NCBI GenBank assembly: GCA_016176295.1
Contig: JACOXN010000007.1
Span: forward strand, 1 to 53,787
Length of the DNA stretch: 53,787 bases
Direction: 5' to 3'
Source of the DNA: Candidatus Giovannonibacteria bacterium
GTDB taxonomy: Bacteria; Patescibacteriota; Minisyncoccia; UBA11713; 2-01-FULL-45-33
Part shown: in pieces, positions 34,930 through 53,584 of the stretch
Layout of the letters: every line of letters starts with the position of its first letter
How positions within the stretch are numbered: the stretch's first letter is position 1
Program-made: the position numbers and the translations under genes
Notes under the pieces: generated by a model
Seen by the model: only the letters and a program-made list of their open reading frames with translations
Databases searched by the model: none
Told to the model about the DNA's origin: nothing

Positions 34930-35209
34930 AAGTAAGAGCGCTAATCAGTAATGTGAAAAAAAATAAATGCAGAACGTATTTATACGATGGCCATGCCGGA
35001 TATGTAAGAACAAAAGACCAAATGAGCATCGCGAAAAATCCGGCGGACCATGCCAGCACCGCGTTGTATATAATATTGGTAAAAGAAAAAAAATCGAATA
35101 ATGCCACCATCATAAAAACGGGGAAAACATAGAACCCGGGATCGGGTGACGCTATACTTTCCCATAACGCGGCAAGAAAAATAGCCGTGAATATAGCGGT
35201 AAGTCTCAT
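34907..35209 (-). CDS. MreD-like membrane protein
   Basis: Hydrophobic 100-aa ORF between mreC and pbp2. Confidence 0.55.
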   Translation of the reverse strand: MRLTAIFTAIFLAALWESIASPDPGFYVFPVFMMVALFDFFSFTNIIYNAVLAWSAGFFAMLIWSFVLTYPAWPSYKYVLHLFFFTLLISALTYAFEKKK

Positions 35210-36964: not shown

Positions 36965-38177
36965 GCAGTTCCTTTATTTTAACCAGTTTTGTTTCCCTAG
37001 AATCCCGTCTTTTTAACTCAACAGAATCTTCTTTTAAAGTCTTTTCGCTGACGACAATCCTTAATGGTATACCAATCAGGTCGGAATCTGCAAATTTTTC
37101 TCCCGCGGAGCGCGGAGAATCGTCAAAAAGCACCTCGCTTACTCCCAAAATGGCATAAATTTCTTCGGTTTTTTGCCTGGCTTCCGCGGAATCCCCGAGA
37201 ACAATTAAATGCGCTTTGAAGGGAGCCAGGTTTTCCGGCCAAATAAAACCTTTTTCATCATGGTAAATTTCAGCCACCGCGCCCAAAAGCCTCGTCATTC
37301 CTATCCCGTAGCATCCCATTACGACGGGCTTATTCGCTCCGCTTTCGTCTTTATACGTCAGACCAAAAGGATCGGAATATCTGGTTTTAAGCGGGAAAAT
37401 ATTGCCGACCTCAATGGATTTTTCCTTGCGTAAATCGCTGTTGCCGCAAGTCTGGCATTTTTTAAAATCATTTATCACTTCGTCGTTTATTGCAGTGTGG
37501 CATTTGTCGCAAACATAAATCATGTCTTCTCCTGATTCTGTCAAAGTCTGGAATTCATCCGAGTACTTCGAGAACGTTCCTCCGGAGGCGCGCGTCAGAT
37601 AGGTCCTCTCCCCCAGCCCGACACGTTTAAAAACTTCAGAATAAACTTCCTGCATTTTTGCATAGTAGTTCTCAAAATTTTTTTCATCGCGGTGGAAAGA
37701 ATACATATCTTTCATCCTGAATTCGATGCCGCGGAAAAGCCCGGACTTGGCGCGAAGCTCATTCCGAAATTTCGTCTGGATTTGGTAGACCGAAAGCGGC
37801 AGATCGCGATAGGAAGATATGAAGTGTTTAACCAAGGGAACCACGATTTCTTCGTGGCTCTGGCCCAGCACCATTTTTTTACCGGTGGCCGATTCGATGT
37901 GGAAAAGCACATCGATGTTCTCTCGGCCGGTTTTTATGTAGTTGTCCTGCGGATGCAAAGCAGGCATCAGCACTTCCTGCCCGCCGGCCTTGTTCATTTC
38001 TTCCCTTACGATGTTCTCAATTTTATTTAAAACGCGAAGTCCCAGCGGTAAAAAGGTATAAACACCCGCCATTAATTTCTGCACGAAACCGGCCTGCTCC
38101 AAAAGCTTGGCATTGACACTTTCTTCATTTTTTGGCGGAGTTCTTAGCGTTTTTACGAATAGTTCGGAATGACGCAT
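36957..38177 (-). CDS. proS: Proline--tRNA ligase, short form lacking the INS editing domain
   Basis: LLEQAGFV, YQIQTKFRNE, F.MKD.YSFH, IEVGNIF, MGCYGIG. Confidence 0.92.
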   Translation of the reverse strand: MRHSELFVKTLRTPPKNEESVNAKLLEQAGFVQKLMAGVYTFLPLGLRVLNKIENIVREEMNKAGGQEVLMPALHPQDNYIKTGRENIDVLFHIESATGKKMVLGQSHEEIVVPLVKHFISSYRDLPLSVYQIQTKFRNELRAKSGLFRGIEFRMKDMYSFHRDEKNFENYYAKMQEVYSEVFKRVGLGERTYLTRASGGTFSKYSDEFQTLTESGEDMIYVCDKCHTAINDEVINDFKKCQTCGNSDLRKEKSIEVGNIFPLKTRYSDPFGLTYKDESGANKPVVMGCYGIGMTRLLGAVAEIYHDEKGFIWPENLAPFKAHLIVLGDSAEARQKTEEIYAILGVSEVLFDDSPRSAGEKFADSDLIGIPLRIVVSEKTLKEDSVELKRRDSRETKLVKIKELHV

Positions 38178-38266
38178 ACGCTAATAATAGCCTGAAAATA
38201 TCGCCAAACGCAAATAAAAAACCCCGAATCCATAGGATTGAGGCACAGCATGCTTTCTTTATGAAA

Positions 38267-38632
38267 TCAGAGGAGTTCGAGAAGGCCCGTGACTTCGTTG
38301 GCGGTGCGTTCGGCGCTGTCTGCGTTCAATTTTAAACGATAAACCTCACGGTCGCCGTCGTTTTTTACGTTTGATATCTCGGCCTGCAGTTTGCTAACCT
38401 GATCCGCAGTATCCTGCTTCACGGCCGGGATCTTCTCTTAAGCCATTTTGGCCCGGGTCTTCTGTCTCTCTATTTCTACCTTGCCCTCTTCGCGGACAGT
38501 GACGCGTACGCCGACCGCTTCCAAAGCAGCAAGAGTTAAAACCATGGCGTCGCGCGTAGGTGCGACGCCGCGCGATGCCACCTTAGCAACCGTGCGCCTG
38601 AGTGCGTATAACCCGAACTTTCTTGAGAACAT
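38267..38632 (-). pseudogene. Coiled-coil hypothetical protein with in-frame TAA at codon 65
   Basis: SD AAGGAGG-N5-ATG; 64 codons, TAA 38440-38438, 56 more sense codons to TGA 38269-38267, then a terminator hairpin. Confidence 0.6.
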
Positions 38633-38742
38633 AGAATCCTCCTTCTTTTTTTTACCATAAACTAACCCTAAAAATAGCCTAACAAATCAAGAAAAAAAAT
38701 CAATAGGTGAAATTTTAATAAAAACCTAAACCTCTAAGAAAG

Positions 38743-39822
38743 TCAGAAAAATCTCCTGATGTCCTGCTTGGTGACGAATATTATTAGAAGTAGAAGCAAA
38801 ACCCAACCTGCGAGAGCCATTGAATTCTGAACTTTCATTGAAAGCGCCCGGCCGCGGATCTTTTCAATCAGGATCAAAAGCTGCCTGCCACCGTCCAACG
38901 GGACGATGGGAAGCGCGTTTAAAACCGCGAGCGCCACGGATATCTGCGCGGCAAAAGCCAAAAGCGTGCCCAACCCCAATTGAACCAATTGCCTCGTCAA
39001 AAAATAAATTCCTACGGGCCCGGCTACATCCTTTGAAAGCCTGGTTTCAACAAAGAGCAGCCTAAAAAATTCTACGAGCCCCATGACCACGGCAATGATA
39101 AGATTCTTAGTCATTAAAAGCGCGCGCCATATAGATTGAAAAAACGGATAGCGGATAATTCCTGTCGTATCCAAAGCGATGCCGACCGGGCCCTCGCCCT
39201 CCGGAGGAGTCTCGCGCGAAACCACTGAAATTTCCTTGACCTCGCCTCCTCTCATTAGAGTAAATCCAATCTCTGTGTCTTTGTGCGATGTTATGAAATT
39301 CTGAACATCTTCCGTGGTTTTGGGCGCTACTTCATCCTTGCCAGCCTTCAACCCGGTTATTTCGTCAAGCAGCATCAGGTTCGCATTTTCAGCGGGCGAC
39401 CCGGGAGCGATTCCCAATATTTGCACTTTTACATCGGAAGCCGAAAGAGCCATCTCAGCATCGAGAGTTGTTCTCATCCCCGCGAAATTCGCGAAAGACA
39501 AAAGCACGAATGCAAGGACAACGTTCATGAGAACCCCGGCCATGATTACTTTGGTTTTCGGCCAGGCGCCCTGTCCGGAGAAACTTTTTTTGTCTTCAGT
39601 TCCTTTCCCATCCTCACCATAAATGCGGACAAACCCTCCCAAAGGAATCATGTTCAATGAATATATGGTATCCCCAATTTTTTTGCCGATAACACGCGGC
39701 GGAAATCCGAATCCGAATTCGTCCACCTGCATTCCCGCGCGCTTCGCCATTATAAAATGCCCGCCTTCGTGCACGAAAACGCAAACGCTAAGAATGGCTA
39801 AAAAAATTAAAAATTCGATCAT
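38743..39822 (-). CDS. rseP: Site-2 membrane metalloprotease RseP
   Basis: HEGGH, FGFGFPP, PLGGFV, PDZ domain, NALPIVPLDGG. Confidence 0.92.
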   Translation of the reverse strand: MIEFLIFLAILSVCVFVHEGGHFIMAKRAGMQVDEFGFGFPPRVIGKKIGDTIYSLNMIPLGGFVRIYGEDGKGTEDKKSFSGQGAWPKTKVIMAGVLMNVVLAFVLLSFANFAGMRTTLDAEMALSASDVKVQILGIAPGSPAENANLMLLDEITGLKAGKDEVAPKTTEDVQNFITSHKDTEIGFTLMRGGEVKEISVVSRETPPEGEGPVGIALDTTGIIRYPFFQSIWRALLMTKNLIIAVVMGLVEFFRLLFVETRLSKDVAGPVGIYFLTRQLVQLGLGTLLAFAAQISVALAVLNALPIVPLDGGRQLLILIEKIRGRALSMKVQNSMALAGWVLLLLLIIFVTKQDIRRFF

Positions 39823-39838
39823 AATTTTCTATTAAGCT

Positions 39839-39923
39839 AATCATCCTGAAAATAAATTTTTTAACGGCCTGTAGCCGAGGCAGCAGCGTAGGCGCTGTTA
39901 AAAAAATTATTTTCAGGATGATT
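39839..39923. repeat. 85-bp hairpin with 27-bp arms and GC-rich core
   Basis: 39839-39865 vs 39897-39923 match 26/27 as an inverted repeat. Confidence 0.8.
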
Positions 39924-39925
39924 GG

Positions 39926-40477
39926 TTAAATCTCCATGATTTCCCTTTCTTTCTTTTCCGCGACTGCGGCGATCTTCCCGTTCACCTCGTCCACAAGCTT
40001 TTCGAGTTTGCTCTTTAAAGAGAATTTTTGGTCTTCCGAAATGGTTTTCGCCTGGTGCTCATCCTGAATGGTTTTCCAAAATTCATCCCTTAGCTTGCGG
40101 ACCGTGATCCTCGCTTCCTCCATCTTTTTTCCCAAAAGCTTCACGGTTTCTTTCCGTCTTTCCTCCGTCATCGGCGGGAAAGAAATGCGCACGCTGTCCG
40201 TTTCGGCAACAGCCGACGTGCCCGGATTCGCTTTTTCCAAAGCGGACTGAATGGCCGGCAAAAGAGATTTGTCCCAGGGTTTCACCAATATACTCCTGGG
40301 ATCCGGCATTGAGAGGGATGCCAAATGGGAAAGCTGGTCTTTGGCGCCGTAAGCTTCCACCAGCGTGTCTTCCACCATACTGATATGCGCCCGCCCGGTA
40401 CGGAGATTTTTAAGCTCCGCTTCAAAGTGAGCCGCCGCTTCGCCGAACTTTTTTTCCGCAATTCCTATATCCATCAT
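39926..40477 (-). CDS. frr: Ribosome recycling factor
   Basis: LRTGRA, VEAYG, PWDKS, P.MTEERRKE..K. Confidence 0.93.
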   Translation of the reverse strand: MMDIGIAEKKFGEAAAHFEAELKNLRTGRAHISMVEDTLVEAYGAKDQLSHLASLSMPDPRSILVKPWDKSLLPAIQSALEKANPGTSAVAETDSVRISFPPMTEERRKETVKLLGKKMEEARITVRKLRDEFWKTIQDEHQAKTISEDQKFSLKSKLEKLVDEVNGKIAAVAEKKEREIMEI

Positions 40478-41160
40478 ATTATCATCATAAAATATTCTCC
40501 CAATAAACGCTTGCTCATGGTCGGGTCCCGAAGAGCTTCTTTAATTCTAAGCAGCTCTTGGGTTTTGTAAATAGCGTCCGCTGAATGTTCTTTTTTCAGC
40601 TTCGTTCCGAATGAACAAAGCGCCCTGGAAACCAGAGTTTCAAGCCCGCCGTCCTCCGCCAGTTTCGCCGCCCTGGAAAAACGCTCGCTGTAGGAAAGTT
40701 TTTGGATTTTCAAAAGCTCCTCACTGTCTTTCGGCTCAGAATTTGACCAGAAGCGAAGATGCGAGAACCGCGACCTTATTGTGGAGAGTATTAGATTGAA
40801 ATTCTGTGAAGTTGCGATAAACAGTGAACTGTCCGAAGGATCCTCCAAAAGTTTAAGTAAAATAGGCGCCGCGTCTCTGGTTAAATTTTCGATGTTCCTT
40901 ATCAGGAAAACATTCTTCTTGGCGCTTATCGGAGACCTTCCGGCGGAGGCTCTCAATTCCCGCACTTCCTTTATTGAAATACTCGGGCTAGCCAATTCAT
41001 AAAAATCCGGCTCACGCTTGTAATCTGCGCCGATGGCCGAGCAAATTAAAAACTCAAGCGCCGTATTTTTCGCTTCTTCGTCCCTTCCGGAAAACAAATA
41101 AGCGTGCGGGAGCACGCCCCGCTCTACCTGTTTTTTTAATATTCCGAAAGGTCTCTGCAT
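40474..41160 (-). CDS. holB: DNA polymerase III delta-prime-like subunit (short)
   Basis: LPHAYLFSG, ISIKEVREL, LLKLLEDP, ILSTIRSR. Confidence 0.8.
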   Translation of the reverse strand: MQRPFGILKKQVERGVLPHAYLFSGRDEEAKNTALEFLICSAIGADYKREPDFYELASPSISIKEVRELRASAGRSPISAKKNVFLIRNIENLTRDAAPILLKLLEDPSDSSLFIATSQNFNLILSTIRSRFSHLRFWSNSEPKDSEELLKIQKLSYSERFSRAAKLAEDGGLETLVSRALCSFGTKLKKEHSADAIYKTQELLRIKEALRDPTMSKRLLGEYFMMII

Positions 41161-42174
41161 TTAACGCTTGGCTATGATGCTTTTTTTATAGGCATCGAGG
41201 TGTTCCAGAGCGATGCCCGTGCCTTTGGCTACGCAAAAGAGCGCATCTTTGGCTACATTGGCGGGCACACCTGTTGAGCGCGAAACCAAAACATTGAGAT
41301 TGCGCAGTAACGAACCGCCGCCGGTCATGGTTATTCCTCTTTCAATGATATCGCTCGCCAGCTCCGGCGGGGTCTGGTGCAAAACCTGCTTAATTGCTTT
41401 TATCATATCTCTCAGTTCATTCTCGATCGCTTTTACAACTTCGTTGGTATGGATGTCCACGGCGCGCGGCAATCCTGTAAGAAAATCACGCCCTTTTATC
41501 GTATGTGTAAGCTCCTCCTCCATTGGTATTGCGGAACCGATCGCTATTTTTATTTCTTCAGCGGTTCTGTCTCCAATGGCGAGATTGTAGTGTTTTTTTA
41601 TGTAATCGGCGATGGCCTGGTCGATCTTATTCCCAGCCACTTTTACCGAAATAGAACTTACGATTCCTCCCAGCGAAATTACAGCGGCATCAATTGTTCC
41701 TCCGCCAATATCCACCACCATGTGTCCCTGTGGCTCATGGATGGGAATCCCCGCGCCGATGGCTGCCAAGATCGGTTCCTTTACGACATATGCCGCTTTG
41801 GCGCCGGCTTTCACGGCCGCCTCAACTACGGATCTTCTTTCCGTAGATGTAACTCCGGCCGGCACCGAAACCAAAACTTCCGGTTTTAACAAATTATATT
41901 TGCCGGTGGATTTTCCGATAAAATATCGGAGCATTGCTTCGGTCACGCGGTAATCCGCGATAACCCCGTCCTTCATCGGACGATACGCGACTATGGTTTC
42001 GGGTGTGCGCCCTATCATCACTTTAGCTTCGTTCCCCACGGCTAAAACTTTATTGTCCGGAAAAGAAACCGCCACAACCGATGGTTCATTGATAACCACT
42101 CCTTTGCCGGGTTTGTACACCAAAGTGTTGGCGGTTCCCAGATCTATTCCTATTTTTTTTACGAAAAAAGACAT
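41161..42174 (-). CDS. Second MreB/Mbl-like actin homolog
   Basis: IGIDLGTANT, KEPILAAIG, DIGGGT, TGGGSLL, CVAKGTG. Confidence 0.92.
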   Translation of the reverse strand: MSFFVKKIGIDLGTANTLVYKPGKGVVINEPSVVAVSFPDNKVLAVGNEAKVMIGRTPETIVAYRPMKDGVIADYRVTEAMLRYFIGKSTGKYNLLKPEVLVSVPAGVTSTERRSVVEAAVKAGAKAAYVVKEPILAAIGAGIPIHEPQGHMVVDIGGGTIDAAVISLGGIVSSISVKVAGNKIDQAIADYIKKHYNLAIGDRTAEEIKIAIGSAIPMEEELTHTIKGRDFLTGLPRAVDIHTNEVVKAIENELRDMIKAIKQVLHQTPPELASDIIERGITMTGGGSLLRNLNVLVSRSTGVPANVAKDALFCVAKGTGIALEHLDAYKKSIIAKR

Positions 42175-42199
42175 TATGATTGGATATTTACGCTTAAAT

Positions 42200-43429
42200 C
42201 TAAATCCTTTCGATGTCCGCCCCCAGAGAGCGAAGCCTTGTATCTATTCTTTCATATCCGCGGTCAATTTGATAGATATTGCCGATTTGTGATTCACCTT
42301 CCGCCACCAGCGCGGCCATAACATAAGCCAGACCCGCTCTTAGATCAGGGCTTTCCAAAACTTTCCCTCTCAGCTTTGAGGGGCCGCTAACTATGGCCCG
42401 GTGCGGATCACACAAGGCTATCTTAGCACCCATTCTATTTAAATCTTCAATATGATTCAAGCGACCTTCAAAAATTGTCTCATGGATAAGTCCCTGACCT
42501 TCGGCCTGTGTGAGAAGCACCATAAATGGCGCCTGAAGATCAGTCGCGAATCCCGGATAAACCTGTGTTTTAACATCAACCGCATTTAAATGCTCGGACT
42601 TGCCGACAACAATATAATTCGTCCCTGTCTCGAGATAAGCGCCGGCGTTCTGAAGAACCGAAAGCAGGGAAGATATTTCGTGTGTATTGCAATTTTTGAT
42701 CTTCAATTTTTTTGCAGCCAGCGCTCCTAAAATAGCGAAGCTTCCCGCTTCTATCCTGTCAGGAGGATCAATGAAAGGTTCTTTGGGGATAAGAAGCTCA
42801 CCTTCCCTTCCTTCCACAATGACAGTGTGAGTTCCGGCTCCGGTAATTTTCGCGCCGTTCCTGTTTAAAAATTCTTCGAGGTAAGCAATTTCAGGCTCCA
42901 TGGCCGCGTTCCTGAGAACAGTCGTGCCGCGCGCCAATACGGCCGTCATTATAAGTCCCGCGGTTCCCGTAACACTGGGGACGCGTAAAGTGTGGTCGCA
43001 CCCCCTCAACCCGTGCGGAGCTTTAATATTATAAACTTCCGTGCCATGCGCGGTTTGTCCGGCCGCTTCAATTTCCGCTCCCATATTTTCCCAACCTTCA
43101 AGAAAAACATCGATGGGCCGCGCTCCTATTACGCATCCGCCCGGATGCGGAAAAACTGCTTTGCCGAAACGGGCCAGCGCGGGCCCCACCGTAAGTATGG
43201 AAGCCCGAAAGCGCTTTGCAATATCCAAATCTATCTCCCCCTTTGCTTCTATACCCGAAAGAAGTTCGCGCATTCTTTTGATGTCTTCTATTTCCGGAAG
43301 GTTTAGAAAATCAATTTTGCCTTTGAATAATAATGAAGCCGGCATAGCGACCAAAGCCGCGTTCTTCGAGCCGGATACCTCGATTTCTCCTTCAAGAATG
43401 TTCCCCCCACGCACCAGAAATTTATCCAT
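42200..43429 (-). CDS. murA: UDP-GlcNAc 1-carboxyvinyltransferase
   Basis: GSKNAAL, FRASI, PGGCVIGARPID (catalytic Cys), PDRIEAG, YPGFATDLQ, DLRAG, IDRGYE. Confidence 0.95.
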   Translation of the reverse strand: MDKFLVRGGNILEGEIEVSGSKNAALVAMPASLLFKGKIDFLNLPEIEDIKRMRELLSGIEAKGEIDLDIAKRFRASILTVGPALARFGKAVFPHPGGCVIGARPIDVFLEGWENMGAEIEAAGQTAHGTEVYNIKAPHGLRGCDHTLRVPSVTGTAGLIMTAVLARGTTVLRNAAMEPEIAYLEEFLNRNGAKITGAGTHTVIVEGREGELLIPKEPFIDPPDRIEAGSFAILGALAAKKLKIKNCNTHEISSLLSVLQNAGAYLETGTNYIVVGKSEHLNAVDVKTQVYPGFATDLQAPFMVLLTQAEGQGLIHETIFEGRLNHIEDLNRMGAKIALCDPHRAIVSGPSKLRGKVLESPDLRAGLAYVMAALVAEGESQIGNIYQIDRGYERIDTRLRSLGADIERI

Positions 43430-43508
43430 CCCGTTAGAAATTATGCCAATAATCTCCGTGGATTATCCCAGCCATCAATAACCAGTTTTTGGTTATTTCT
43501 AACGGGAT
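43428..43508. promoter_or_regulatory. 14-bp inverted repeat enclosing the murA translation initiation region
   Basis: ATCCCGTTAGAAAT (43428-43441) / ATTTCTAACGGGAT (43495-43508) with two inner hairpins. Confidence 0.55.
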
Positions 43509-43601
43509 CCATGCATCAAACTTACGGCATTTTCCGTAAAGAATCAAATATTGAATAATATTGGAATTTTTGATACTTTATTACAAGGAAGGAGAGTACA
43601 A

Positions 43602-43802
43602 ATGGAAACGATAATCTGTGAAAGCAGCACATCATTACAATTGCCGGACGGCGCCACCATTGAAATCAGCATTTTCCGGCATATGACCAAAATCGAAGTA
43701 CAAAAAGACAATGCAAATGTACATATAATCATAGGCAGAGAAAAAAACAATAACATTCGGGTCGAGACAGAAGGGCTGTATCAGAACAGAGACCGGATAT
43801 AA
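43602..43802 (+). CDS. 66-aa hypothetical protein
   Basis: ATG 43602 after AAGGAAGGAG; followed by the terminator at 43850-43874. Confidence 0.6.
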   Translation: METIICESSTSLQLPDGATIEISIFRHMTKIEVQKDNANVHIIIGREKNNNIRVETEGLYQNRDRI

Positions 43803-43849
43803 TCCCTTCGAACAGATGGCCTTATCCCGAATGACCTTACCCAGAAGGT

Positions 43850-43874
43850 AAACCGTCGTAAAGACGGTTTTTTT
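43850..43874 (+). terminator. Intrinsic terminator
   Basis: AAACCGTC-GTAAA-GACGGTTT-TTTT. Confidence 0.65.
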
Positions 43875-43906
43875 ACTAGAGCTATAAATAAAGTTCATAA
43901 ATTTCG

Positions 43907-43931
43907 ACAAAAAAAGCGCTTTAGCGCTGTG
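43907..43931. repeat. Direct repeat copy 1 (ACAAAAAAAGCGC-TTTAGCGCT-GTG)
   Basis: Nearly identical to 44598-44623; reads as a short terminator on the minus strand. Confidence 0.6.
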
Positions 43932-44025
43932 TGGATATCATTGACTTTTCATCTTTTATTTGATATATTGAGAATATTCATACGAAAAAGCACCTCTCTG
44001 GGTTCCGTCCCTTAGCGGTGTTTTT

Positions 44026-44514
44026 TCATTTATATTCCAGTTTTTGTCGAAGATTGCTCATAAAGACTATTCTCTCTTTAGCTTCTTTTTTAAGAAGCGA
44101 TGAGCAAGTATCAATATAGGGGCTCATAACAAACCGCAGCTTTTTGTTCTGATAGAGATGCTTAACCAACGAATAGAAATCTCCATCACTAGACACGATA
44201 ATCGCCTGATTAAAATTAGAAATATCTAACATTGTTTGGAGCACGAGGTCTGCATCAACGTTTCCTTTGATGTTTCCATTTCCATCTGGGATGGTTGGCT
44301 TCAAAATCAGAACATAGCCCGCTTTCTGAAGTTCAGAGTAAAGCGGCTGGTTGCCCGGTACATATCCAACAAAATAATAAGCTGTGGTTACACAATATTT
44401 TTCTCGTAAATATTTTCTGAATCGAGCAAAATTTAATTTCCAACCCAAGCTCTGAATACCGAGATTGAGATTTTGCCCGTCAATGAATGCGAAATTATTT
44501 ATATTTTGTTGCAT
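44026..44514 (-). CDS. NYN domain protein (LabA/DUF88, PIN-like fold)
   Basis: NFAFIDGQNL, KGNVDADLV, IVSSDGDF motifs. Confidence 0.88.
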   Translation of the reverse strand: MQQNINNFAFIDGQNLNLGIQSLGWKLNFARFRKYLREKYCVTTAYYFVGYVPGNQPLYSELQKAGYVLILKPTIPDGNGNIKGNVDADLVLQTMLDISNFNQAIIVSSDGDFYSLVKHLYQNKKLRFVMSPYIDTCSSLLKKEAKERIVFMSNLRQKLEYK

Positions 44515-44597
44515 TTATATTGAGTATATTCTCATAAATCATGCCATTTCACAACTCAAAAAACAGCTTGGTTAAGCCACGGGCATGAACATTAAAC

Positions 44598-44623
44598 ACA
44601 AAAAAAGCGCGTTTAGCGCTATG
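44598..44623. repeat. Direct repeat copy 2 (ACAAAAAAAGCGCGTTTAGCGCTATG)
   Basis: One insertion and one substitution relative to copy 1. Confidence 0.6.
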
Positions 44624-44633
44624 TTTTACTAAT

Positions 44634-44867
44634 TTATGATTCTGGATCAAAAAATCTTGACCAAATGTACATCAGAATAACCAACGAAATTATGGCCAAA
44701 AGGCCCATACTGCCCCCTACAATAAAAATATTGGTGTGGTTTGGCGTAAAACCCAATACAGGTTCGATCCGCGAAGTAGGAAACCGCGACCAAATCCAGT
44801 TGAGTGTAATAACATCGAAAAACAATATGACAATAACACAAAAGGAGTAAAGTGCGTTAGCTCTCAT
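44634..44867 (-). CDS. 77-aa two-TM hypothetical protein
   Basis: SD GAGGAGG upstream; two hydrophobic segments. Confidence 0.6.
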   Translation of the reverse strand: MRANALYSFCVIVILFFDVITLNWIWSRFPTSRIEPVLGFTPNHTNIFIVGGSMGLLAIISLVILMYIWSRFFDPES

Positions 44868-44910
44868 TCTGCCTCCTCAATTCTACAGGTGAGGATAGCA
44901 TCTTCCCAAT

Positions 44911-45390
44911 TTAAAGCAAAATGATGCCGAGGATGGGAAGCACCTGCCACCAAATGGCATATGGATCGGAGAAAAATTTTAAATTGTCGGGAGGAACGCC
45001 GGTAAGATCAGAATTTAAAGCCCCTGCTGGCGCGGTGCCAACCAGAAGAACCGTAAAAAACCCGGCGTAAAGCGCCGAAAGCAAGAGTACTTCCCACCAG
45101 ACGCTGTCGTCATCCCGCACGAGATATTTTCTTGAAAGTAAAAAAGAAAGAATTATCCACAGGAGAGCCAAAACCCCTCCTTTGATAAGGAAAGCTTCTT
45201 CGGGAGCCCTTCCGGCGCCCAAAAGCAGTTCGGAAGGAATAAGCGGGAAAAGCAAAGCCAGTACATAAAGCGCCATTATCATGCCTTTTAAGACGTATTT
45301 GCCTTTTTGAATTCCCAAAAAAAACCCTGCCGAAACAAGGAACAAAAGAAAAATATACCCCCAGCCGATGGATGACAAAACTTGCTGCAT
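44911..45390 (-). CDS. Multi-pass membrane hypothetical protein
   Basis: ATG 45390 (MQQVLSSIGW) lies 7 nt after the duplicated dnaJ stop; host-like composition. Confidence 0.7.
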   Translation of the reverse strand: MQQVLSSIGWGYIFLLFLVSAGFFLGIQKGKYVLKGMIMALYVLALLFPLIPSELLLGAGRAPEEAFLIKGGVLALLWIILSFLLSRKYLVRDDDSVWWEVLLLSALYAGFFTVLLVGTAPAGALNSDLTGVPPDNLKFFSDPYAIWWQVLPILGIILL

Positions 45391-45397
45391 GTATATA

Positions 45398-45427
45398 TTA
45401 TAGCCCCTCTTTCTCCAATTCGGAAAG
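45398..45427. repeat. 30-bp direct repeat, copy of the dnaJ 3' end (att-like)
   Basis: TTATAGCCCCTCTTTCTCCAATTCGGAAAG, identical to 48469-48498; flanking bases differ on both sides. Confidence 0.92.
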
Positions 45428-46057
45428 AATAAGGGCCCGTTCTTCAACAGGAAGTGATTTGAAGCTGTTTCTCGTATTTTTATGCGCAATATCAGCATTC
45501 AATAAAACTTCGTTTGGGTAGGCATTGCGCAAACTGATTACTTTCTCATCAGTTTGGCTCAAAGCACTTAATTCATCAACGCCCAATGAGTTATCTTTGC
45601 TAAGAATTTTCCATCCATTAGAATGTCCGTTAAGAGAGTACCACTTATATTTTTCGTTATATCTTGCAGTTAATAAATATGTTATTCCAGGTTCAAGTAA
45701 GGGCATCTTGCCTTCTGTGTAAAGTGTAGAGTTATTGAAGCCGCCGAGTTGATCGACTGTCACCAATCCATTCAAATCTCCCTTAATATTCGATATGACT
45801 TGAACTTCGAATTGTGTTTTGGGTACCCCTAGGTGACTTTCACTGCCAACCTGCTTAATAACCTTACCCACAAATATATTATGTGATGCTCCTATAAGCA
45901 CTTTATCATCTGAGTAATCGGCGGCATACGATAGGTGCAATTCGACTGTTTTAACAGGAATTAGATGTATATTCAAGTTTAATAAATATATGCTTGTTAT
46001 AATCCCAATCATTAAACCGCCACCTGCCAAAGAATATTTTAAGTTTTTTTTATTCAT
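45398..46057 (-). CDS. Membrane-anchored hypothetical protein; last 9 codons and stop come from the dnaJ repeat
   Basis: N-terminal TM; ends LSELEKEGL like DnaJ. Confidence 0.75.
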   Translation of the reverse strand: MNKKNLKYSLAGGGLMIGIITSIYLLNLNIHLIPVKTVELHLSYAADYSDDKVLIGASHNIFVGKVIKQVGSESHLGVPKTQFEVQVISNIKGDLNGLVTVDQLGGFNNSTLYTEGKMPLLEPGITYLLTARYNEKYKWYSLNGHSNGWKILSKDNSLGVDELSALSQTDEKVISLRNAYPNEVLLNADIAHKNTRNSFKSLPVEERALILSELEKEGL

Positions 46058-46086
46058 AATTATTTACTATTAAACAATAATTATTG

Positions 46087-46410
46087 TTATTGAATTAATA
46101 AGCTAATATTGATATTACATTTTTTTGATGCCGCAATAACGACCTTACTTAATTCTTGTACTGAAGAGATTTTTTTGGCTAATCTAACGGACCGCCCATC
46201 AATAAAGTAAATAACAGTTTCCGAGTTATAAAATCTGACAGATTTGACTACACATTTTTCAATTAATGGAATTGCCTCATCTGTTGTTTTAGGAAGCAAA
46301 AAAGAATCTGTGTTTTGATTTGTCTTTATATAATATATAGTAGCACCAGCCAGGCTAACCACTGTTATCACTATTAGTAAATACTTTAAGAATTTCGAAA
46401 ACATAGACAC
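46087..46410 (-). CDS. Single-TM hypothetical protein
   Basis: 107-aa ORF 3 nt after the protease stop. Confidence 0.65.
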   Translation of the reverse strand: MSMFSKFLKYLLIVITVVSLAGATIYYIKTNQNTDSFLLPKTTDEAIPLIEKCVVKSVRFYNSETVIYFIDGRSVRLAKKISSVQELSKVVIAASKKCNINISLLIQ

Positions 46411-46413
46411 TTA

Positions 46414-48345
46414 CTACGGATATAAATACGCATAATCTGAAACATCTTGACTACCTAAACTTGTTTGGGAAGTAACGCCCGCATGCATTATATTTCCGTC
46501 ATAACTATGATCTAAGCCAAGTGCATGACCAAGCTCATGAGTAGCAACAAATTGTCTTTGATTAGAAGTATAATTGCTGAAAGGATAAGAATTTAGATAA
46601 ATCACATCGATTCCGCCAAAATCTTCGCAGTCATAGTAACAATACAAGCCATCCCAATATTCGCTGGGTTCGTAGGCATCTGTGACTCCAAGGTCTGCTG
46701 TTGTATCTACAGTATCGGTAGCAACGTTTATTTGATTTTGAGCATTCCACGTATCTACAGCACTATACCAGGCAGATGCATATTGCGTTGAAGCTATATA
46801 GCGAATTTCATTAGTATTTTGATTTACCGATGAATACCCCAAAACGTAATGAGGACCTCCCACCCAAGGATTAAAATCAACATTATTTGAAACCTTACTA
46901 TTTTGATTACCTGATGGATTTGATGTCGCATGGTAAGGACCCGAAGAGCTTCCCCAGTAATTATTTAAAGCATTTATATTTGCGCCTGAACTATTAAAAG
47001 CCCCGTAAGAAGTAAAGTTTTCAATTGTGCTTGAAGCCACAGAAATAACACCATCATTTTGATACAATCCATACGTTCCATTATGTAAGTAGGAATAGGT
47101 AATAGTCGTGGTGCCAGTTGAAGTTTGCAATATCTGCGTACTGGATGTCGCAGCCTCAGAATTAATAAATTCCAAATCACCGCCATAATTTAACAGCATT
47201 GGATATGTATAACCGCCATAACGCACTACAGTGTGGGATAGCGTGCCAGTGGACCCCGAGTTGAACTGAATCGTGTCCCAGTTTCCGGCAGCCGGTGTTG
47301 TGGCTGAGCCGTCATTATTCGTGTCCCCGCCAATTGAATCATCCTTTAAAGAAGTAAAGAAAATATTTACTTCGGGGTTACCTAAAGCTTGCAATGTTCC
47401 ATTAACTGTAAGACCGGCAGAGGTGCCGTCGAATTTTACTATGACGCCCGGTTTTAAAGTTAATGTTTTTCCAGACCCTATAGAGAAACCCTGGAGAATA
47501 TAGGGTATATCTGCGGCCCAGGTTTGATTATTAGCCATACCGCCTGTGATGATAAATCCGTTCTTCCCATTTCCTGAGGCTGAATTGTTGGTGGAAGAAG
47601 CGACTAGACCATATGTAAGTATAAAACGACCGGCTGCGGTCGTATTTCCATTTAAGGTGGAATTTTCTACAAAAATGCTTCCAGAATCATTGCTATCAAT
47701 GCCGTAGTTTGTATTGTCGCGTATCGTGCTTGAATCGACATGGACATAGCCGTTGTTTTGATAAACGCCGTAGGTTCCGTGGTGAATTACGGAGGAAATA
47801 ACAGTTGTTGTGCCTGTATAATTATATATAACCTGCGAGCTCGATGTTGCGACTTCTGAATTAGACACAGTTAAATTGCCGCCGTAAGTAAAAAAGATGG
47901 GATATGTGCTGCCGCCGTAGCGAACGACTGCATGTGATATCGTACCGACTGAACCGGAATTGAACTGAATCGTATCCCAGTTTCCAGCGGCGGGTGTTGT
48001 GGCTGAGCCGTCGTTATTCGTATCACCACCCACAGCATCATCTTTGAACGAGGTGAAATAAATTGTGCTTGTGGACGTGCCTTGCGCATCCAGTGTTCCG
48101 CTGACGGTAAGAGCGACACCGGATTTGAATTTAACAACAACACCCGGTTCAATAGTTAAAGTTACGCCTGAATTTATTGAAATTGAATTTTGAATTATGT
48201 AGACACTGCCTGAAGTATCCCAAGTAGTGTTAGATGATACATTGCTGGTTATCGTCGTATCCGCATGCGCGAGAAAAGAAAAACCTGCGAAGAATATTAA
48301 AACAAAGCTGAAAATTAATAACCGATAATGAAAAGGTGATCTCAT
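46414..48345 (-). CDS. Secreted beta-helix repeat protein with C-terminal metzincin (matrixin-like) protease
   Basis: Signal peptide, two LT(I/L)xPGV(V/I)VKF...WDTIQF repeats, HELGHALGLDH (HExxHxxGxxH) and Met-turn NIMHA. Confidence 0.85.
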   Translation of the reverse strand: MRSPFHYRLLIFSFVLIFFAGFSFLAHADTTITSNVSSNTTWDTSGSVYIIQNSISINSGVTLTIEPGVVVKFKSGVALTVSGTLDAQGTSTSTIYFTSFKDDAVGGDTNNDGSATTPAAGNWDTIQFNSGSVGTISHAVVRYGGSTYPIFFTYGGNLTVSNSEVATSSSQVIYNYTGTTTVISSVIHHGTYGVYQNNGYVHVDSSTIRDNTNYGIDSNDSGSIFVENSTLNGNTTAAGRFILTYGLVASSTNNSASGNGKNGFIITGGMANNQTWAADIPYILQGFSIGSGKTLTLKPGVIVKFDGTSAGLTVNGTLQALGNPEVNIFFTSLKDDSIGGDTNNDGSATTPAAGNWDTIQFNSGSTGTLSHTVVRYGGYTYPMLLNYGGDLEFINSEAATSSTQILQTSTGTTTITYSYLHNGTYGLYQNDGVISVASSTIENFTSYGAFNSSGANINALNNYWGSSSGPYHATSNPSGNQNSKVSNNVDFNPWVGGPHYVLGYSSVNQNTNEIRYIASTQYASAWYSAVDTWNAQNQINVATDTVDTTADLGVTDAYEPSEYWDGLYCYYDCEDFGGIDVIYLNSYPFSNYTSNQRQFVATHELGHALGLDHSYDGNIMHAGVTSQTSLGSQDVSDYAYLYP

Positions 48346-48468
48346 TAGGATTATAAAATTAATTATTTAATAAAATAGCTTTAATTTAAGTTTAACACAG
48401 CAGATAAAGACCCAAAAAAAAGTTATACACTGGTTGCATAAAAATGTATAAAGTTATTTCTTTGGTCT

Positions 48469-48498
48469 TTATAGCCCCTCTTTCTCCAATTCGGAAAG
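48469..48498. repeat. 30-bp direct repeat, dnaJ 3' end
   Basis: Identical to 45398-45427. Confidence 0.92.
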
Positions 48499-49545
48499 GA
48501 GGTCGCGGGCGCGCGAGCTCAATTTTTTAGGCAGCCTGGGGAAAATCCTTATCAAAAGGTCGCCTCTTCCTCCGCGGAGCTTCGGAACTCCTTTGCCGCG
48601 GATGCGCAAAAAGTCTCCGGCCTTGGAAAGCTCCGGAATGCGCACTTCTATTTTTCCTTCAAGCGTTTCTAAAATTTCTTTGCCTCCCAAAAGCATTTTA
48701 CTGGGAGAAACATTGAGGTCTGTCAAAATATCCTGTCCTTCGCGGCGGAATATCGGATGCGGCATCACTCTTATCTTTACATAGAGGTCCCCGGAAACTG
48801 CGCCGGGAGCGGCTTCTCCCATGCCGGAAAGTTTTATCGCCTCGCCGTCGCGGATCCCCGGAGGGATTTCAATATCGATATTTTCCTGCTTCCGCAGAAC
48901 GCCGACGCCTCTGCAAACCTGGCAGACTTTTTCCGGAATTTCCCCGCGTCCGCCGCAGTTGGAGCACTCGGCGAGTGAAGTGAAAGTGCCGAAAACCGAG
49001 CGGCGGCTTTCCCTGATGGTTCCCGTCCCCTGGCAGTGCGCGCACTTATTGGCTTTGCTTCCCGGCTCCCCTCCTTCGCCTCCGCAATGTTCGCAGGTTG
49101 AAGTTTTTTCAAGCACGATGCTTCGTCTGATGCCGAATACCGAGTCCGAAAACGCTATATCGATACCGATGGAAATATCCCTGCCGCGCTTCTGCCTTCT
49201 TTTGCCGTGCCCGCCGTAAAAATCACCGCCGAACCCCGCGAAAATATCCTCAAAAATATCTCCGAAATCGGCGTTGCCGAAAGGCGAGGCGCCGGCAGAG
49301 CCGGAGCCGGATGAAAAACCCGAAAAATCCCGGCCCTGGAAAGAGGACCCGAACTGGTCGTACTGCCGTCTTTTATTCTCATCCTCCAGAACCTGATAGG
49401 CTTCATTTATTTCCTTGAACCTTTTTTCATCGCCGCTTTTTTTGTCCGGATGATATTGGTGCGCCAATTTGCGGTAGGCGCGTTTTATTTCATCGCGCGT
49501 GGCGTTCCTCGGTATCCCCAAAATTTCGTAATAATCCTTGCTCAT
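48469..49545 (-). CDS. dnaJ: Chaperone DnaJ
   Basis: J domain with HPD, G/F region, four CxxCxGxG repeats. Confidence 0.96.
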   Translation of the reverse strand: MSKDYYEILGIPRNATRDEIKRAYRKLAHQYHPDKKSGDEKRFKEINEAYQVLEDENKRRQYDQFGSSFQGRDFSGFSSGSGSAGASPFGNADFGDIFEDIFAGFGGDFYGGHGKRRQKRGRDISIGIDIAFSDSVFGIRRSIVLEKTSTCEHCGGEGGEPGSKANKCAHCQGTGTIRESRRSVFGTFTSLAECSNCGGRGEIPEKVCQVCRGVGVLRKQENIDIEIPPGIRDGEAIKLSGMGEAAPGAVSGDLYVKIRVMPHPIFRREGQDILTDLNVSPSKMLLGGKEILETLEGKIEVRIPELSKAGDFLRIRGKGVPKLRGGRGDLLIRIFPRLPKKLSSRARDLLSELEKEGL

Positions 49546-49555
49546 TAAAATATAT

Positions 49556-50383
49556 TTAAACTAATATCTCCCGGGAGGCGGGTATTTTCGTCTTCACAAA
49601 TAAACCCGCGACTGTGAATATCTTAATAAATAAAAACATAAAGAGCAACGCCCCGTACATAAATATGATACTCACGAATTTTAGCGCCAGGAAGTAACTG
49701 GCCGCCGCTATCACCGGAATGTAGAACCGGTATGGCCCGGTATATTCGTTCAATTTGGCGATAGAGAGCTTATAAAGAGCCCGCGAGACATTCTCGTCTC
49801 CTTTAATACTGATGCCGAGTTCCGCCGAAAACTGCTCGATCTGCTCCGATATGGCCACGTCCTCTATTTTACTGTCTGCGGTTATGCCGGGAAAATATTT
49901 TTGAAGCGGGACTTCCAAAAATTTGAAAATTCCGTGGAAAATATTTTCCGGCAGAAGAAGCGAAGCGGAGGACTGCTCGAAAATGCTGCCGTAATAGGAA
50001 AAAGCGACGACAACCGCGAGGGAAGTAAAAAACATTTTCAGGCTTTTCCCGACTATCTTTTTTGAAGAAAAAGCGACGGACGCATTGTACTCGCGCTCCG
50101 AATCCCAGACAGAGTAAAGCAGAATGGCTAGCGCCAAAAGGAGCCCGGAGAGCGTGAACTTGCTTTGCCCCAGAGAAACGGCGAAAAGCATCAGCGATAA
50201 AATTGGAACTCCCCACCGGAGCCAAAGGTTCTCGGTAAAAATGAGGAAAAAACCGTATATGACCGCATAAGCCAGAATAACCAACGAAACAATAGGATAA
50301 TCCGGTATCTTGCCCCAAAAATATCCTCCGATAAATCCGGCCGCCGTAAGCAAGATGCCAAAAATTATTTCCTTATTTTTCAT
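49556..50383 (-). CDS. Multi-pass membrane hypothetical protein between dnaK and dnaJ
   Basis: 275 aa, several TM segments, overlaps the dnaK stop. Confidence 0.7.
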
Positions 50384-52256
50384 TATTTTTGTCGTTCCCG
50401 ATATCTTTGTATTCCGTGTCTTTTACATCCTTATCTTTATTTTCCTCCTTGGGCTTTTGTTTGTAAAGCTCCTCTCCTATTTTTGAAATCTCTTGTGAAA
50501 GTTCTTTTTCCGCTGCTTCCAGCCGTCCCAGGTCGCTTCCATCTTTTACATTCTTTAGCTCCGCTATTTTTGCTTCAACACCTTTTTTAATCTCATCGCT
50601 TATCTTGTCCCCCGCATCGCGGAGTGATTTTTCCGCGGAGTAAACCAGTGAGTCCGCCCGGTTCTTGGCATCTATCAGATCGCGGGCTTTTTTATCTTCT
50701 TCCGCATGTAAAGCCGCGTCCTGCTTCATTTTTTCCACTTCTTCTTTAGAAAGACCGGAAGAAGCTTCAATACGGATGCTTTGTTCTTTTCCCGTGGCCT
50801 TGTCCTTGGCTTTGGCGGAAAGTATGCCGTTGGCATCTATGTCGAAAGAAACTTCCACCTGCGGCATTCCGCGGGGCGAAGGAGGAATACCGTCCAAAAT
50901 GAACGTGCCCAAAGTTTTATTGCCGGAGGCCATTTCGCGCTCTCCCTGGAGAACGTGTATTTCCACGGAGGTCTGATTGTCCGCGGCGGTGGAAAATACC
51001 TGGCTCCTCGAAACCGGTATCGTGGTATTTTTTTCGATAAGCTTGGTCATCACTCCTCCCAGAGTTTCAAGACCCAGGGAAAGCGGGGTCACATCCAGCA
51101 GTAAAACGTCCTTTACGTCTCCCTGCAGAATTCCTCCCTGGACCGCGGCTCCCACTGCCACGACTTCGTCGGGATTGATGGTCAGGTTGGCGTTCTTGCC
51201 GAAAAGTTTCTTGATTCCCTCGACAATCGCGGGCATCCTGGTCTGCCCTCCCACGAGGACTATTTCGTCAATCTCGGATATTTCAAATTTTGCCTCCTTC
51301 ACCACATCACGAGTGATGTCGAGAGATTTCTGTATGAAATCACCAACCAATTCTTCTAGCTTTGAGCGCGAAAGCTTCATAAGCAGATGTTTCGGGCCGG
51401 AAGCGTCCGAAGTAATAAAAGGAATGTTTATCTCGGTTTCGGAAACCGTAGAAAGCTCATGCTTCGCTTTTTCGGCCGCCTCTTTTAAACGCTGAAGCGC
51501 CAGCATATCCTTTGAGGTGTCTATGCCCGACTCTTTCTTAAACTCAGTGACAATGTAGTTCATTACTCTCTGATCGAAGTCATCCCCTCCCAAATGCGTG
51601 TCCCCGCCCGTCGCACGCACTTCTATAGTATCTTCGCTTATTTCAAGCACCGAGAGATCGAATGTTCCTCCGCCGAAATCGTACACCACTATCTGCTCGT
51701 TCTTTTTGCGATTCAAACCGTAAGCCAAAGCAGCCGCCGTAGGCTCGTTGATTATTCTTCTCACGGTAAATCCGGCTATCTCACCTGCGTCTTTCGTAGC
51801 TTTTCTTTGCGAATCGTCGAAATAGGCGGGCACGGTGATTATGGCTTCGTCGATTTTTTCCCCGAGCTTGGCTTCCGCATCGGCCTTCAATTTTGAAAGC
51901 ACCATCGCCGAAATTTCCTCCGGTCGGTACCATTTTTCATTTATTTTTATCTCCACCCCGCCGTTCTTCGATTCGCGCAGCTCAAAAGGGAAGAGCGCTT
52001 TGTCCCGCTGAACTTCGGCATCCGTAAACTTGCGCCCGATAAGCCGTTTTGCGGAAAATATAGTATCGCGCGGATTGGTCACTGCCTGGCGCTTCGCCAA
52101 AAGCCCAACAAGGCGCTCCCCGGTTTTGGAAAAAGCCACAATGGAAGGAGTAGTGCGCGCCCCCTCGGCGTTCTCCAAAATTTTGGGGACTCCCCCTTCG
52201 ACCACCGCCATCGCGGAATTAGTTGTTCCTAAATCTATTCCTATTATTTTTCCCAT
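50373..52256 (-). CDS. dnaK: Chaperone DnaK
   Basis: [46 protein letters not shown]. Confidence 0.97.
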
Positions 52257-52267
52257 TTTTTTATTTA

Positions 52268-52828
52268 TTAATTTTTAATCTCTTTGCCCCCGGAATATTT
52301 CCCGGTCTTTACTTTTGCCGGCCGGAGGACTTTGCCGTGTATCAGATAACCCTTTTGAAGCTCATCAAGTATCTCGCCGTCCTTTGAGCTCTCGCTCACA
52401 TCCGCCGTCTCCCACGCTTCATGGAATAACGGATCAAACTTCTTACCCTTGCTTTCCAGCTGCTCCACGCCGTGCTTTCTCAAAATGTCCAGAATCTGAC
52501 GGTATATCCTTTCGGCGCTTTCAAACCCGGGATCGTGCTTAACGGCCATATCAAGCGAATCCGCGACAAACAGCAATTCCAGCAAAATATTCTCTTCCGC
52601 AAATTGGACAAACGCTTTTCTGGCCTTTTCATCGTCTTTCCTGGCATTTATGAAATCCGCTTTCGCTCTTTGCCATCCTGCCAGATATTCATCGCGTTCC
52701 TTTCTTAACCGGGCTGTTTCATCTTTAAGTTTTCTTATTTTCTTTTCCGGTTCGTTACCGAAGCCGTCCTCGTCGGCGAACTCAGTTTCTTCTTCAATTC
52801 CTGGCTCGCTCTCGTCGTCTTTTTTCAT
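52268..52828 (-). CDS. grpE: Nucleotide exchange factor GrpE
   Basis: [25 protein letters not shown]...RPAKV. Confidence 0.94.
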
Positions 52829-52829
52829 A

Positions 52830-53540
52830 TTATTGATTTAATAAGTCTATAATCTTTGAAATGGCTTTTTCATAATCCATGCGCTTGGGGCCGAAAGCGA
52901 AAAAAACAGCCTCATCCCCGCTCCGTAATCTAACGCTGGCCGCGAGCGAGCTGCCGCATCGGGCATCACGCGAAATATTTTCCTCACCTATCCAAATATC
53001 GAAGCCCCCGGAATCTTTCCCGCTGAGCACTCTTCTGTATTTTTCCATAACGTTCTCCAGATCATCCACCAACCTGCCGAAATGAGCAAGCATGGAAGAC
53101 TCCTGGAATTCCGGCTCGGAAAAAATATCCCCGAATCCGGCCTGCTCATGAAAAATTTCTTCCCCGAATGAAATCGCGCTGGCAAAAAGCTTAAGTTCTT
53201 TTGCGAATTCATGGACCGCTCCGCACATTATATCTTTGTCAAAATCTTCCCTGGGACTCTTTCTCCCAAACCCTGCACTCGGCCGGCTTAACCCATCCAC
53301 AAAATGCCTGTAGCCGCTGTCGGTCGGGATCCTTCCTCCCGAAGTGTGCGGCTTGCGGATAAGCCCGGAATCCTCCAAATCCATCATTATGTTCCTTATC
53401 GTGGCGGGGCTTATACCCAAACGGGACATTTTAAATATGCGCTCCGAAGAGACCGGCACGGCGGTCCGTCCGAAATCCTTCACAATAAAGCGCAAAATAT
53501 CGCCTTTTCTCTTATCTAGTGTTCCGCTTCCCTGAACCAT
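52830..53540 (-). CDS. hrcA: Heat-inducible repressor HrcA (shortened)
   Basis: SPATIRNIM.DLE..GLI.KPHTSGGRIPTD.GYR.FVD and GPKRMDY; start moved to ATG 53540 downstream of the -10. Confidence 0.9.
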   Translation of the reverse strand: MVQGSGTLDKRKGDILRFIVKDFGRTAVPVSSERIFKMSRLGISPATIRNIMMDLEDSGLIRKPHTSGGRIPTDSGYRHFVDGLSRPSAGFGRKSPREDFDKDIMCGAVHEFAKELKLFASAISFGEEIFHEQAGFGDIFSEPEFQESSMLAHFGRLVDDLENVMEKYRRVLSGKDSGGFDIWIGEENISRDARCGSSLAASVRLRSGDEAVFFAFGPKRMDYEKAISKIIDLLNQ

Positions 53541-53547
53541 ATATCCT

Positions 53548-53584
53548 ATTATAAAAATTAGCACTCTAATGTCAAGAGTGCTAA
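53548..53584 (-). promoter_or_regulatory. CIRCE operator overlapping the hrcA promoter
   Basis: Perfect TTAGCACTC-N9-GAGTGCTAA at 53558-53584; minus-strand TTGACA (53575-53570)-N16-TATAAT (53553-53548). Confidence 0.95.

Follow-up and report, generated by a model that had tools for sequence, protein, structure and literature searches.

A 3-kb cassette of three genes lies directly behind dnaJ, between two perfect 30-bp direct repeats, in a contig of a Candidatus Giovannonibacteria bacterium (GCA_016176295.1, contig JACOXN010000007.1; 53,787 nt, analyzed over its whole length and called the window below). The gene order of relatives, the junction sequence, the deviant composition of the interior and independent assemblies together make it highly probable that the cassette is a horizontally acquired insertion at exactly the dnaJ 3′ end. 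It carries no recombinase gene, and our preferred reading, held with moderate confidence, is that it represents an integrase-less islet with attachment-site (att)-type flanks, of the kind known as cis-mobilizable elements (CIMEs), left by site-specific integration. Gain and loss of accessory genes are poorly known in the tiny genomes of symbiotic Candidate Phyla Radiation (CPR)/Patescibacteria, and the cassette provides a case in which the borders are resolved to the base pair and an empty site can be inferred. The window corresponds to the complete contig C13 in an assembly of 827,836 bp, 25 contigs and 85% completeness.

Borders of the Cassette and the Reconstructed Empty Site

The repeated 30-mer, TTATAGCCCCTCTTTCTCCAATTCGGAAAG, occurs twice in the window with 0 mismatches and a period of 3,071 bp (Table 1), and since the bases flanking the two copies are unlike on each side (A/T before, A/G after), the identity is exactly 30 nt long. 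At up to 3 mismatches there was no third copy in the window (0 expected from 100 shuffles) or in the whole 827,836-bp genome, and the exact 30-mer had 0 matches among JGI metagenome contigs. Translated on the minus strand it reads L-S-E-L-E-K-E-G-L-stop and terminates both DnaJ and the 219-aa open reading frame (ORF) of the cassette, here called c219. Excision of 45428-48498 in silico brings the dnaJ stop codon to within 7 nt (TATATAC) of the ATG of a 159-aa membrane protein gene at 45390. The flanks then join as ...GAGAAAGAGGGGCTATAA / TATATACATGCAGC, and the rebuilt junction (GGGGCTATAA / TATATACATG) agrees with natural junctions in four relatives, which read ...GGGGCTATAA / TATATTTATGGC in L047 and ...GGGTTATAA / TATAACTATGCA in L046 and are similar in L039 and L040. 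The initial annotation, made from the letters of the window, had described the sharp-edged duplication, its identity with the last nine DnaJ codons plus the stop and the tidy junction left by removal of the interior, and each of these descriptions proved accurate. It had also noted that islands of tyrosine integrases regenerate the 3′ end of their target gene. That pattern is found here and extends beyond the target: dnaJ is intact, with the C-terminus LSELEKEGL and stop retained, and the downstream membrane gene retains its 7-nt spacer and, as read from the sequence, the 30 nt upstream containing GGAG/GAGG, a ribosome-binding region that is held within the distal repeat copy. The insertion is therefore functionally scarless for both genes.

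Gene order around dnaJ was compared with that in 17 genomes from other genera of the family. A homologue of the membrane gene lies directly 3′ of dnaJ in nine of them (L034, L035, L039, L040, L042, L045, L046, L047, and L048), which suggest the form of the empty site, and none of the three interior genes is present in any of the 17 regions. It is very improbable that the three genes are instead old residents lost in the relatives, with the 30-mer a local duplication. In favor of such a history, the order downstream of dnaJ is not fixed, the membrane gene being absent from that position in eight of the 17 relatives, but it would have to accommodate the lack of any cargo trace in these regions, the strongly deviant composition of the interior, a rebuilt junction with the same layout as the natural ones and the presence of the cargo module at unrelated places in other genomes. 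Judged from these gene orders, the downstream border of dnaJ is a synteny breakpoint in the family. Several relatives, among them L014/L038 (G014:C23), have either a contig end no more than about 130 nt past dnaJ or a change of gene order there.

Table 1. Coordinates of the cassette, its flanking repeats and the adjoining genes in the window.
Feature	Position	Strand	Description
dnaJ, target gene	48469..49545	-	last chaperone gene of the hrcA-grpE-dnaK-(275-aa membrane gene)-dnaJ row
Proximal 30-bp direct repeat, attL-like	48469..48498	-	last 9 codons and TAA stop of dnaJ; upstream side is native dnaJ
AT-rich non-coding leader, 123 nt	48346..48468	-	sole non-coding part of the cassette
c643, secreted 643-aa protein	46414..48345	-	N-terminal signal/transmembrane segment, two ~230-aa beta-helix-type repeats, C-terminal M10/matrixin-like metzincin domain
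c107, 107 aa	46087..46410	-	N-terminal transmembrane helix; no family match
c219, membrane-anchored 219-aa protein	45398..46057	-	Patescibacteria-wide family; last 9 residues from the dnaJ-derived repeat
Distal 30-bp direct repeat, attR-like	45398..45427	-	last 9 codons and stop of c219; downstream side is the native junction
159-aa membrane protein gene	44911..45390	-	start at 45390; ancestral direct downstream neighbor of dnaJ, 9/17 family relatives

Foreign Composition and Independent Assemblies

The interior has a GC content of 0.380, against 0.457 ± 0.029 for the genome, which places it within the lowest 1.2% of 3-kb windows, and by tetranucleotide distance it ranks in the top 1.3%. In Logan, contigs of four other sequencing runs are 100% identical to the window and reproduce the junctions: one from SRR12113430 covers both, those from SRR12113424 and SRR12113420 cover the distal junction, and one from SRR12113384 covers the proximal junction. 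This identity in contigs of four further runs makes an assembly join very unlikely. The genome was assembled from a metagenome, and the repeat has the length k-1 for k = 31, both of which would suit a mis-join through the 30-mer or the threading of a free 3.07-kb circle into the chromosome by the assembler, but besides the four runs, look-ups of the exact DnaJ or membrane proteins returned cassette-bearing contigs only and no empty-site contig (contigs showing presence, not absence), and we give an artefact hardly any credence at all.

Cassette Genes and Leader

The 3,041-bp interior (45428-48468) contains three co-oriented minus-strand ORFs of 643, 107, and 219 aa. A long imperfect AT-rich hairpin (arms 48404-48430 and 48446-48472) begins at the dnaJ stop codon, while the 161-nt leader as a whole folds no better than its shuffles (z = -1.07), and no RNA family was recognized between 43000 and 50000 with Rfam at a permissive threshold. 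The dnaJ gene closes a minus-strand row that extends over 48469-53564 and comprises hrcA (52830-53564), grpE, dnaK, a 275-aa membrane gene and dnaJ. Because neither a consensus promoter nor a T-tailed terminator was detected between dnaJ and c643, it is possible that the cassette is transcribed by read-through from this hrcA-controlled row, the heat-shock read-through that the initial annotation had considered.

The C-terminal domain of c643 has the motif HELGHALGLDH, which fits the zinc-binding pattern HExxHxxGxxH, and the protein matches PF00413 (Peptidase_M10) at 28.9 bits (cut-off 24) with only the C-terminal third of the profile aligned. Its two beta-helix-type repeats are also apparent in the DNA, where 47174-47419 and 47873-48118 are 71% identical over 246 nt with a period of 699 nt. 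Paralogues of this repeat protein are encoded on contigs C25 and C14. No homologue of c107 was detectable across 15 related loci.

As the initial annotation had it, the interior is AT-rich and lacks a recombinase: the three proteins gave no recombinase, relaxase or transfer match in Pfam, NCBIfam or PHROGs, and there is no transposase within the cassette. Its suggestion that the cassette might be a satellite found no support. A phage or satellite origin was dropped, the c219 family having no relatives among IMG/VR viral contigs and PHROGs yielding no match for c219 or c107 and nothing beyond a weak metalloprotease match for c643.

A Conserved Protease-Partner Module

The c219 family includes at least 58 proteins, from genomes of the Parcubacteria/Paceibacteria type, and its members terminate a few residues past a conserved NSYQSL motif, which means that c219 gains its final nine residues by reading through into the dnaJ-derived repeat. 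In species-representative genomes, a gene with an M10-like domain, either alone or behind beta-helix repeats, lies directly upstream of the c219 homologue at 13 of 15 loci; hence protease and partner form a conserved two-gene module. The pair is adjacent in loci L053, L055, L056, and L058-L070, from many Patescibacteria lineages.

An AlphaFold2 model of c219 built from 18 sequences (mean predicted local distance difference test score, pLDDT, of 80) shows a transmembrane helix, a beta-barrel and a helical tail. In a Foldseek search of the PDB, nearly all of the top 16 matches were TIMP-1/2, agrin NtA and PCOLCE NTR structures, with a probability of about 1.0, E ~1e-3 and template modeling (TM) scores of 0.3-0.55. 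For the TIMP/NTR matches the fold scores, E as well as TM, are marginal, the TM score being 0.3 when normalized to the query and 0.5 when normalized to the target, and c219 has no match to TIMPs at the level of sequence. The model is suggestive of a probable role for c219 as a membrane-anchored partner that inhibits the secreted protease or confers immunity to it, and it suggests that the M10-like/c219 pair may be a bacterial protease-inhibitor module resembling pairs of matrix metalloproteinases (MMPs) and their TIMPs, or else an effector-immunity module. The likeness to MMP/TIMP pairs consists in an M10 metzincin motif beside a protein whose model best fits TIMP-1/2 and other NTR modules; c219 differs in being membrane-anchored and in having neither the N-terminal cysteine arrangement nor sequence similarity to TIMPs. 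The metzincin and its partner would plausibly be used at the cell surface of an episymbiont.

Recurrence of Repeat-Flanked Insertions

The initial annotation had further proposed a variable slot after dnaJ and a comparison of this region in related genomes for empty sites or different cargo. Apart from the nine regions with an empty-site layout, one independent case of a filled slot was found. In G018, which belongs to another genus of the family (L037, G018:C29, 2684-3985), dnaJ is followed by a different, 1.1-kb cargo of two genes, encoding a 239-aa HTH_17/MerR-type protein and a 96-aa DUF4325 (STAS-like) protein, flanked by a second copy of the dnaJ 3′ end (85 nt, 82% identical) and then by mnmA. 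A class-wide scan of 401 genomes, 353 of them with dnaJ, for a nearby second DnaJ tail returned only G018; the scan is blind to repeats under about 15 codons, and most of the second matches were the internal repeat of the DnaJ C-terminal domains. Additionally, in G015 (L035, G015:C10, 4029-8013) the 159-aa membrane gene has a homologue that is followed by a 4-kb island. The island is bounded by an exact 28-nt repeat of the 3′ end of this homologue, of which the proximal copy runs on into a similar, non-identical replacement end (part of the left flank is masked as N). This island encodes an rve-type transposase and a PemK toxin, both identified with Pfam, as well as a radical-SAM protein and a methyltransferase, identified by reading of the sequence.

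The protease-partner module itself recurs between repeats. On the complete chromosome OY764332 (L055/L069), it has an intact tRNA-Ile gene at one border and 52 nt of the duplicated 3′ end of this tRNA at the other. In L062 it follows trmD, and behind it the trmD 3′ region recurs as a diverged copy of about 200 nt (83% identity over ~215 nt) whose core of 64 nt is nearly identical, and in L065 the repeat is the 34-nt 3′ end of an apparent gene for ribosomal protein L28 (rpmB, assigned by eye from its translation). At seven further loci (L056, L061, L070, L059, L060, L068, and L101), the module is accompanied by intergenic repeats of 24-125 nt, which occur in three copies at three of these loci. 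Overall, at a threshold of E <= 1e-6, flanking repeats were found at 10 of 16 module loci in species-representative genomes; for control positions the figures were 9 of 300 in this genome, 11 of 300 in the dnaJ regions of relatives and 8 of 127 in other parts of the module loci. The association between module and repeats is real, though not universal, and one type of cargo, a secreted metzincin with a probable inhibitor, appears to travel repeatedly in repeat-flanked units that lack an integrase. An rve fragment adjoins the module in L058. Also in L055, at 10404-10665, two 94-nt copies of a tRNA-Glu 3′ end (99% identical) follow the tRNA-Glu gene, 120 nt apart. Situated next to the protease cassette with its tRNA-Ile flanks, they could represent an empty scar or else a mini-insert.

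Recombinases and Origin of the Cassette

An integrase and further copies of the 30-mer had been proposed as things to look for in the rest of the genome: the 30-mer occurs exactly twice, and an integrase linked to the site was not found. The sole PF00589 match of the genome is a tyrosine recombinase of the XerD/XerC/XerA type on contig C2, not linked to the dnaJ site, for which integron-integrase models score far below their cut-offs. The genome also has one rve-type transposase, not linked to the site either, and two genes for large serine recombinases (frames of 544 and 589 aa) plus a fragment, all at contig ends (C1:25993-26436, C21:315-752, and C11:3902-4117), the position expected of mobile elements that break an assembly. 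As a rule, the identity left by serine integrases is no longer than a few bp, and the two serine recombinases, having no link to the dnaJ site, were set aside as helpers.

Under our preferred reading, the 3,041-bp interior together with one repeat copy would be the acquired cassette, placed between dnaJ and its ancestral membrane-gene neighbor. The 30-bp repeats would be attL/attR-type products of recombination between the last nine codons plus stop of the chromosomal dnaJ and the same 30 bp carried by the incoming DNA. The insertion was probably, if by no means certainly, made by a site-specific recombinase encoded outside the cassette, and the chemistry was most likely that of a tyrosine-type integrase. 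The cassette would then have remained after an integrase-bearing partner excised or decayed, or would have come in through a recombinase acting in trans; it may still be mobile today. Its last gene would have come to read into the repeat, borrowing nine DnaJ codons and the stop. A site-directed event is favored because the conserved 3′ ends found repeated at other loci (trmD, rpmB, and tRNA-Ile) are classic targets of tyrosine-integrase islands, for which duplicated gene ends together with replacement ends brought by the element are a signature.

Several observations weigh against this explanation. Only 123 nt of the cassette are non-coding, which leaves little room for arm-type sites, and the distal border lies inside coding sequence, where the different, longer tail of the closest c219 homologue would also fit a non-specific breakpoint. 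An integrase able to act on the dnaJ site was not found in the 85%-complete genome, from whose assembly a helper could be missing, and the Xer-type recombinase, the serine recombinases and the rve transposase that it does contain are all unlinked to the site. Moreover, G041, the complete 696-kb chromosome with the tRNA-Ile-flanked module, has an Xer-type recombinase only, with neither a serine recombinase nor rve. The 55 loci with a c219 homologue yielded neither remains of an integrase gene nor a relative of the cassette that carries one. Contigs of the four runs contain the integrated form and neither an excised circle nor an empty site, such contigs again showing presence, not absence. In a second sample, of metagenome contigs, flanking repeats were found at 6 of 20 module loci, about half of them being paralogue repeats.

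A less probable alternative, though one to be taken seriously, dispenses with a dedicated recombinase. A donor circle, looped out with the cargo and a short conserved gene end, would be taken up and integrated by one Campbell-type crossover, either RecA-dependent or by a RecA-independent short-repeat pathway as for the H47 island of E. coli, which provides a precedent of a repeat-flanked element without a recombinase (PMC3191183, PMC5426353). Consistent with this route, none of about 12 repeat-flanked cassettes was found to have an integrase in cis, the complete G041 has Xer only, and the targets (dnaJ tail, trmD, rpmB, tRNA) are always highly conserved, giving homology across species. The repeats vary in length from 24 to 125 nt, and several are imperfect with an identical core (82% over 85 nt in G018; L062), but such repeats are equally expected of integrase elements that carry their own target 3′ end. 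Moreover, 30 bp without similarity beyond it is at the very low end for homologous recombination, and a Campbell crossover leaves unexplained how the first 30-bp copy joined the cargo. A broader reading, equally tentative, is that Patescibacteria harbor an undescribed class of cargo-only cassettes of ~1-5 kb, often with an MMP-like protease and TIMP-like partner, that move among conserved gene and tRNA 3′ ends without a recombinase of their own, via the single Xer-type enzyme of the host or via looped-out circles and short-homology Campbell integration. If so, conserved gene ends would be portable landing pads in genomes that are otherwise without integrases. More generally, either a helper recombinase or a recombinase-free route, if true, would explain gene flux in genomes with Xer only; otherwise the cassette would be an ordinary integration fossil.

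It is improbable that the 30-mer is the by-product of a long target-site duplication, made by a transposition-like insertion of an unknown kind or by template switching during replication. The sharp borders, the distal border within coding sequence and duplication lengths that vary by locus would suit such an event, as would the rve-type transposase inside the island of G015 with its 28-nt repeats and the rve fragment beside the module in L058. However, the cassette has no transposase, a search for terminal inverted repeats joining its ends was negative, and the reuse of conserved gene and tRNA 3′ ends, with in-frame replacement ends in G015, L062, and G018, is a hallmark of site- or homology-directed insertion.

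Capture by the single Xer recombinase of the host, in the manner of integrative mobile elements exploiting Xer (IMEXs) or pdif modules, is more doubtful still. Xer is the only tyrosine recombinase in G000, G015, G018, G041, and G042, and the 30-bp repeat is close to the 28 bp of dif. However, the 30-mer, as read from the sequence, has no two-arm inverted symmetry and does not resemble the dif-like palindromes of the same window, and repeats at the other loci are unrelated in sequence and 24-125 nt long. These imperfect palindromes, ACGTCGCAAAATAGTTATTGTGCGAACT (12218-12245) and ATGTCGCACAATGATATTATACGACAA (12793-12819), stand around a small minus-strand gene.

Relation to Known Mobile Elements

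The cassette is an integrase-less, att-flanked islet of a broadly known type, distinguished by its host phylum, by the dnaJ 3′ end as a new target and by the recurrent protease/inhibitor-like cargo. Its closest counterparts are CIMEs, elements that have lost their integration and transfer genes and kept attL and attR; in streptococci they arise through decay, or when a partner excises following tandem accretion, and an incoming element that has the matching specificity can move them (PMC5704250). Like the CIMEs of streptococci and other Firmicutes, the cassette is cargo-only DNA between attL/attR-type repeats that include a conserved gene 3′ end, with no integration or transfer genes, and tandem accretion at the same site has its parallel in L059 and L061 with their three repeat copies. 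In contrast to CIMEs, the cassette has no known relative among integrative and conjugative elements (ICEs) or integrative and mobilizable elements (IMEs) with an integrase to match, nor did one turn up here, and its decay from an ICE or IME is putative. The host also differs, having a genome of ~0.8 Mb with Xer as its sole tyrosine recombinase, and the cassette is very small (3 kb) and almost fully coding.

The H47 island of E. coli, which encodes the microcin H47 system, is likewise small, flanked by direct repeats and without a recombinase, and its mobility relies on host functions, excision being independent of RecA and of all 16 site-specific recombinases of E. coli K-12 (PMC3191183, PMC5426353). 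Its repeats are extensive, imperfect and not a gene 3′ end, unlike those of the cassette, and its excision and integration are experimental, whereas the cassette is known from sequence alone. Tyrosine-integrase islands, IMEs and tycheposons share with the cassette a conserved 3′ end that is targeted and regenerated, and direct repeats of tens of bp, but their defining integrase gene is absent from the cassette and was not found beside it. In such islands, cargo blocks may be split by partial target copies from successive integrations (bioRxiv 10.1101/2020.12.28.424599). IMEXs and pdif modules resemble it in carrying cargo without a recombinase of their own in hosts with Xer as the only tyrosine recombinase, and differ in that the cassette repeat is not dif-like. 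Integron cassettes are also small, promoter-poor cargo without a recombinase, sometimes in arrays. The present cassette, however, has no attC-type site at its 3′ end, which is coding and runs into the dnaJ-derived repeat, and its sole hairpin is at the 5′ end; furthermore, the genome has no integron integrase above cut-off, and the flanks are a duplicated target rather than attI/attC. An insertion sequence or transposon would differ on three counts, since the cassette has no end-joining inverted repeats, no transposase and a duplication of 30 bp.

Other Segments in the Genome

Elsewhere in this genome there is at least one further unit of this kind: contig C15 has an 8-kb island (34850-42915) between 51-nt direct repeats that are 98% identical, beside a tRNA-Ser(cga) gene and with no integrase inside. 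By eye, its genes encode restriction-modification functions, a Vsr-like endonuclease, a Dcm-type methyltransferase and large Z1/helicase-like proteins. In the window, a second low-GC stretch (0.375), for which no flanking repeat was found, lies at 43430-44910, separated from the cassette by the 159-aa membrane gene. It contains an NYN-domain gene (44026-44514), a 77-aa ORF with a transmembrane segment and a 66-aa ORF, and may be a further acquired segment.

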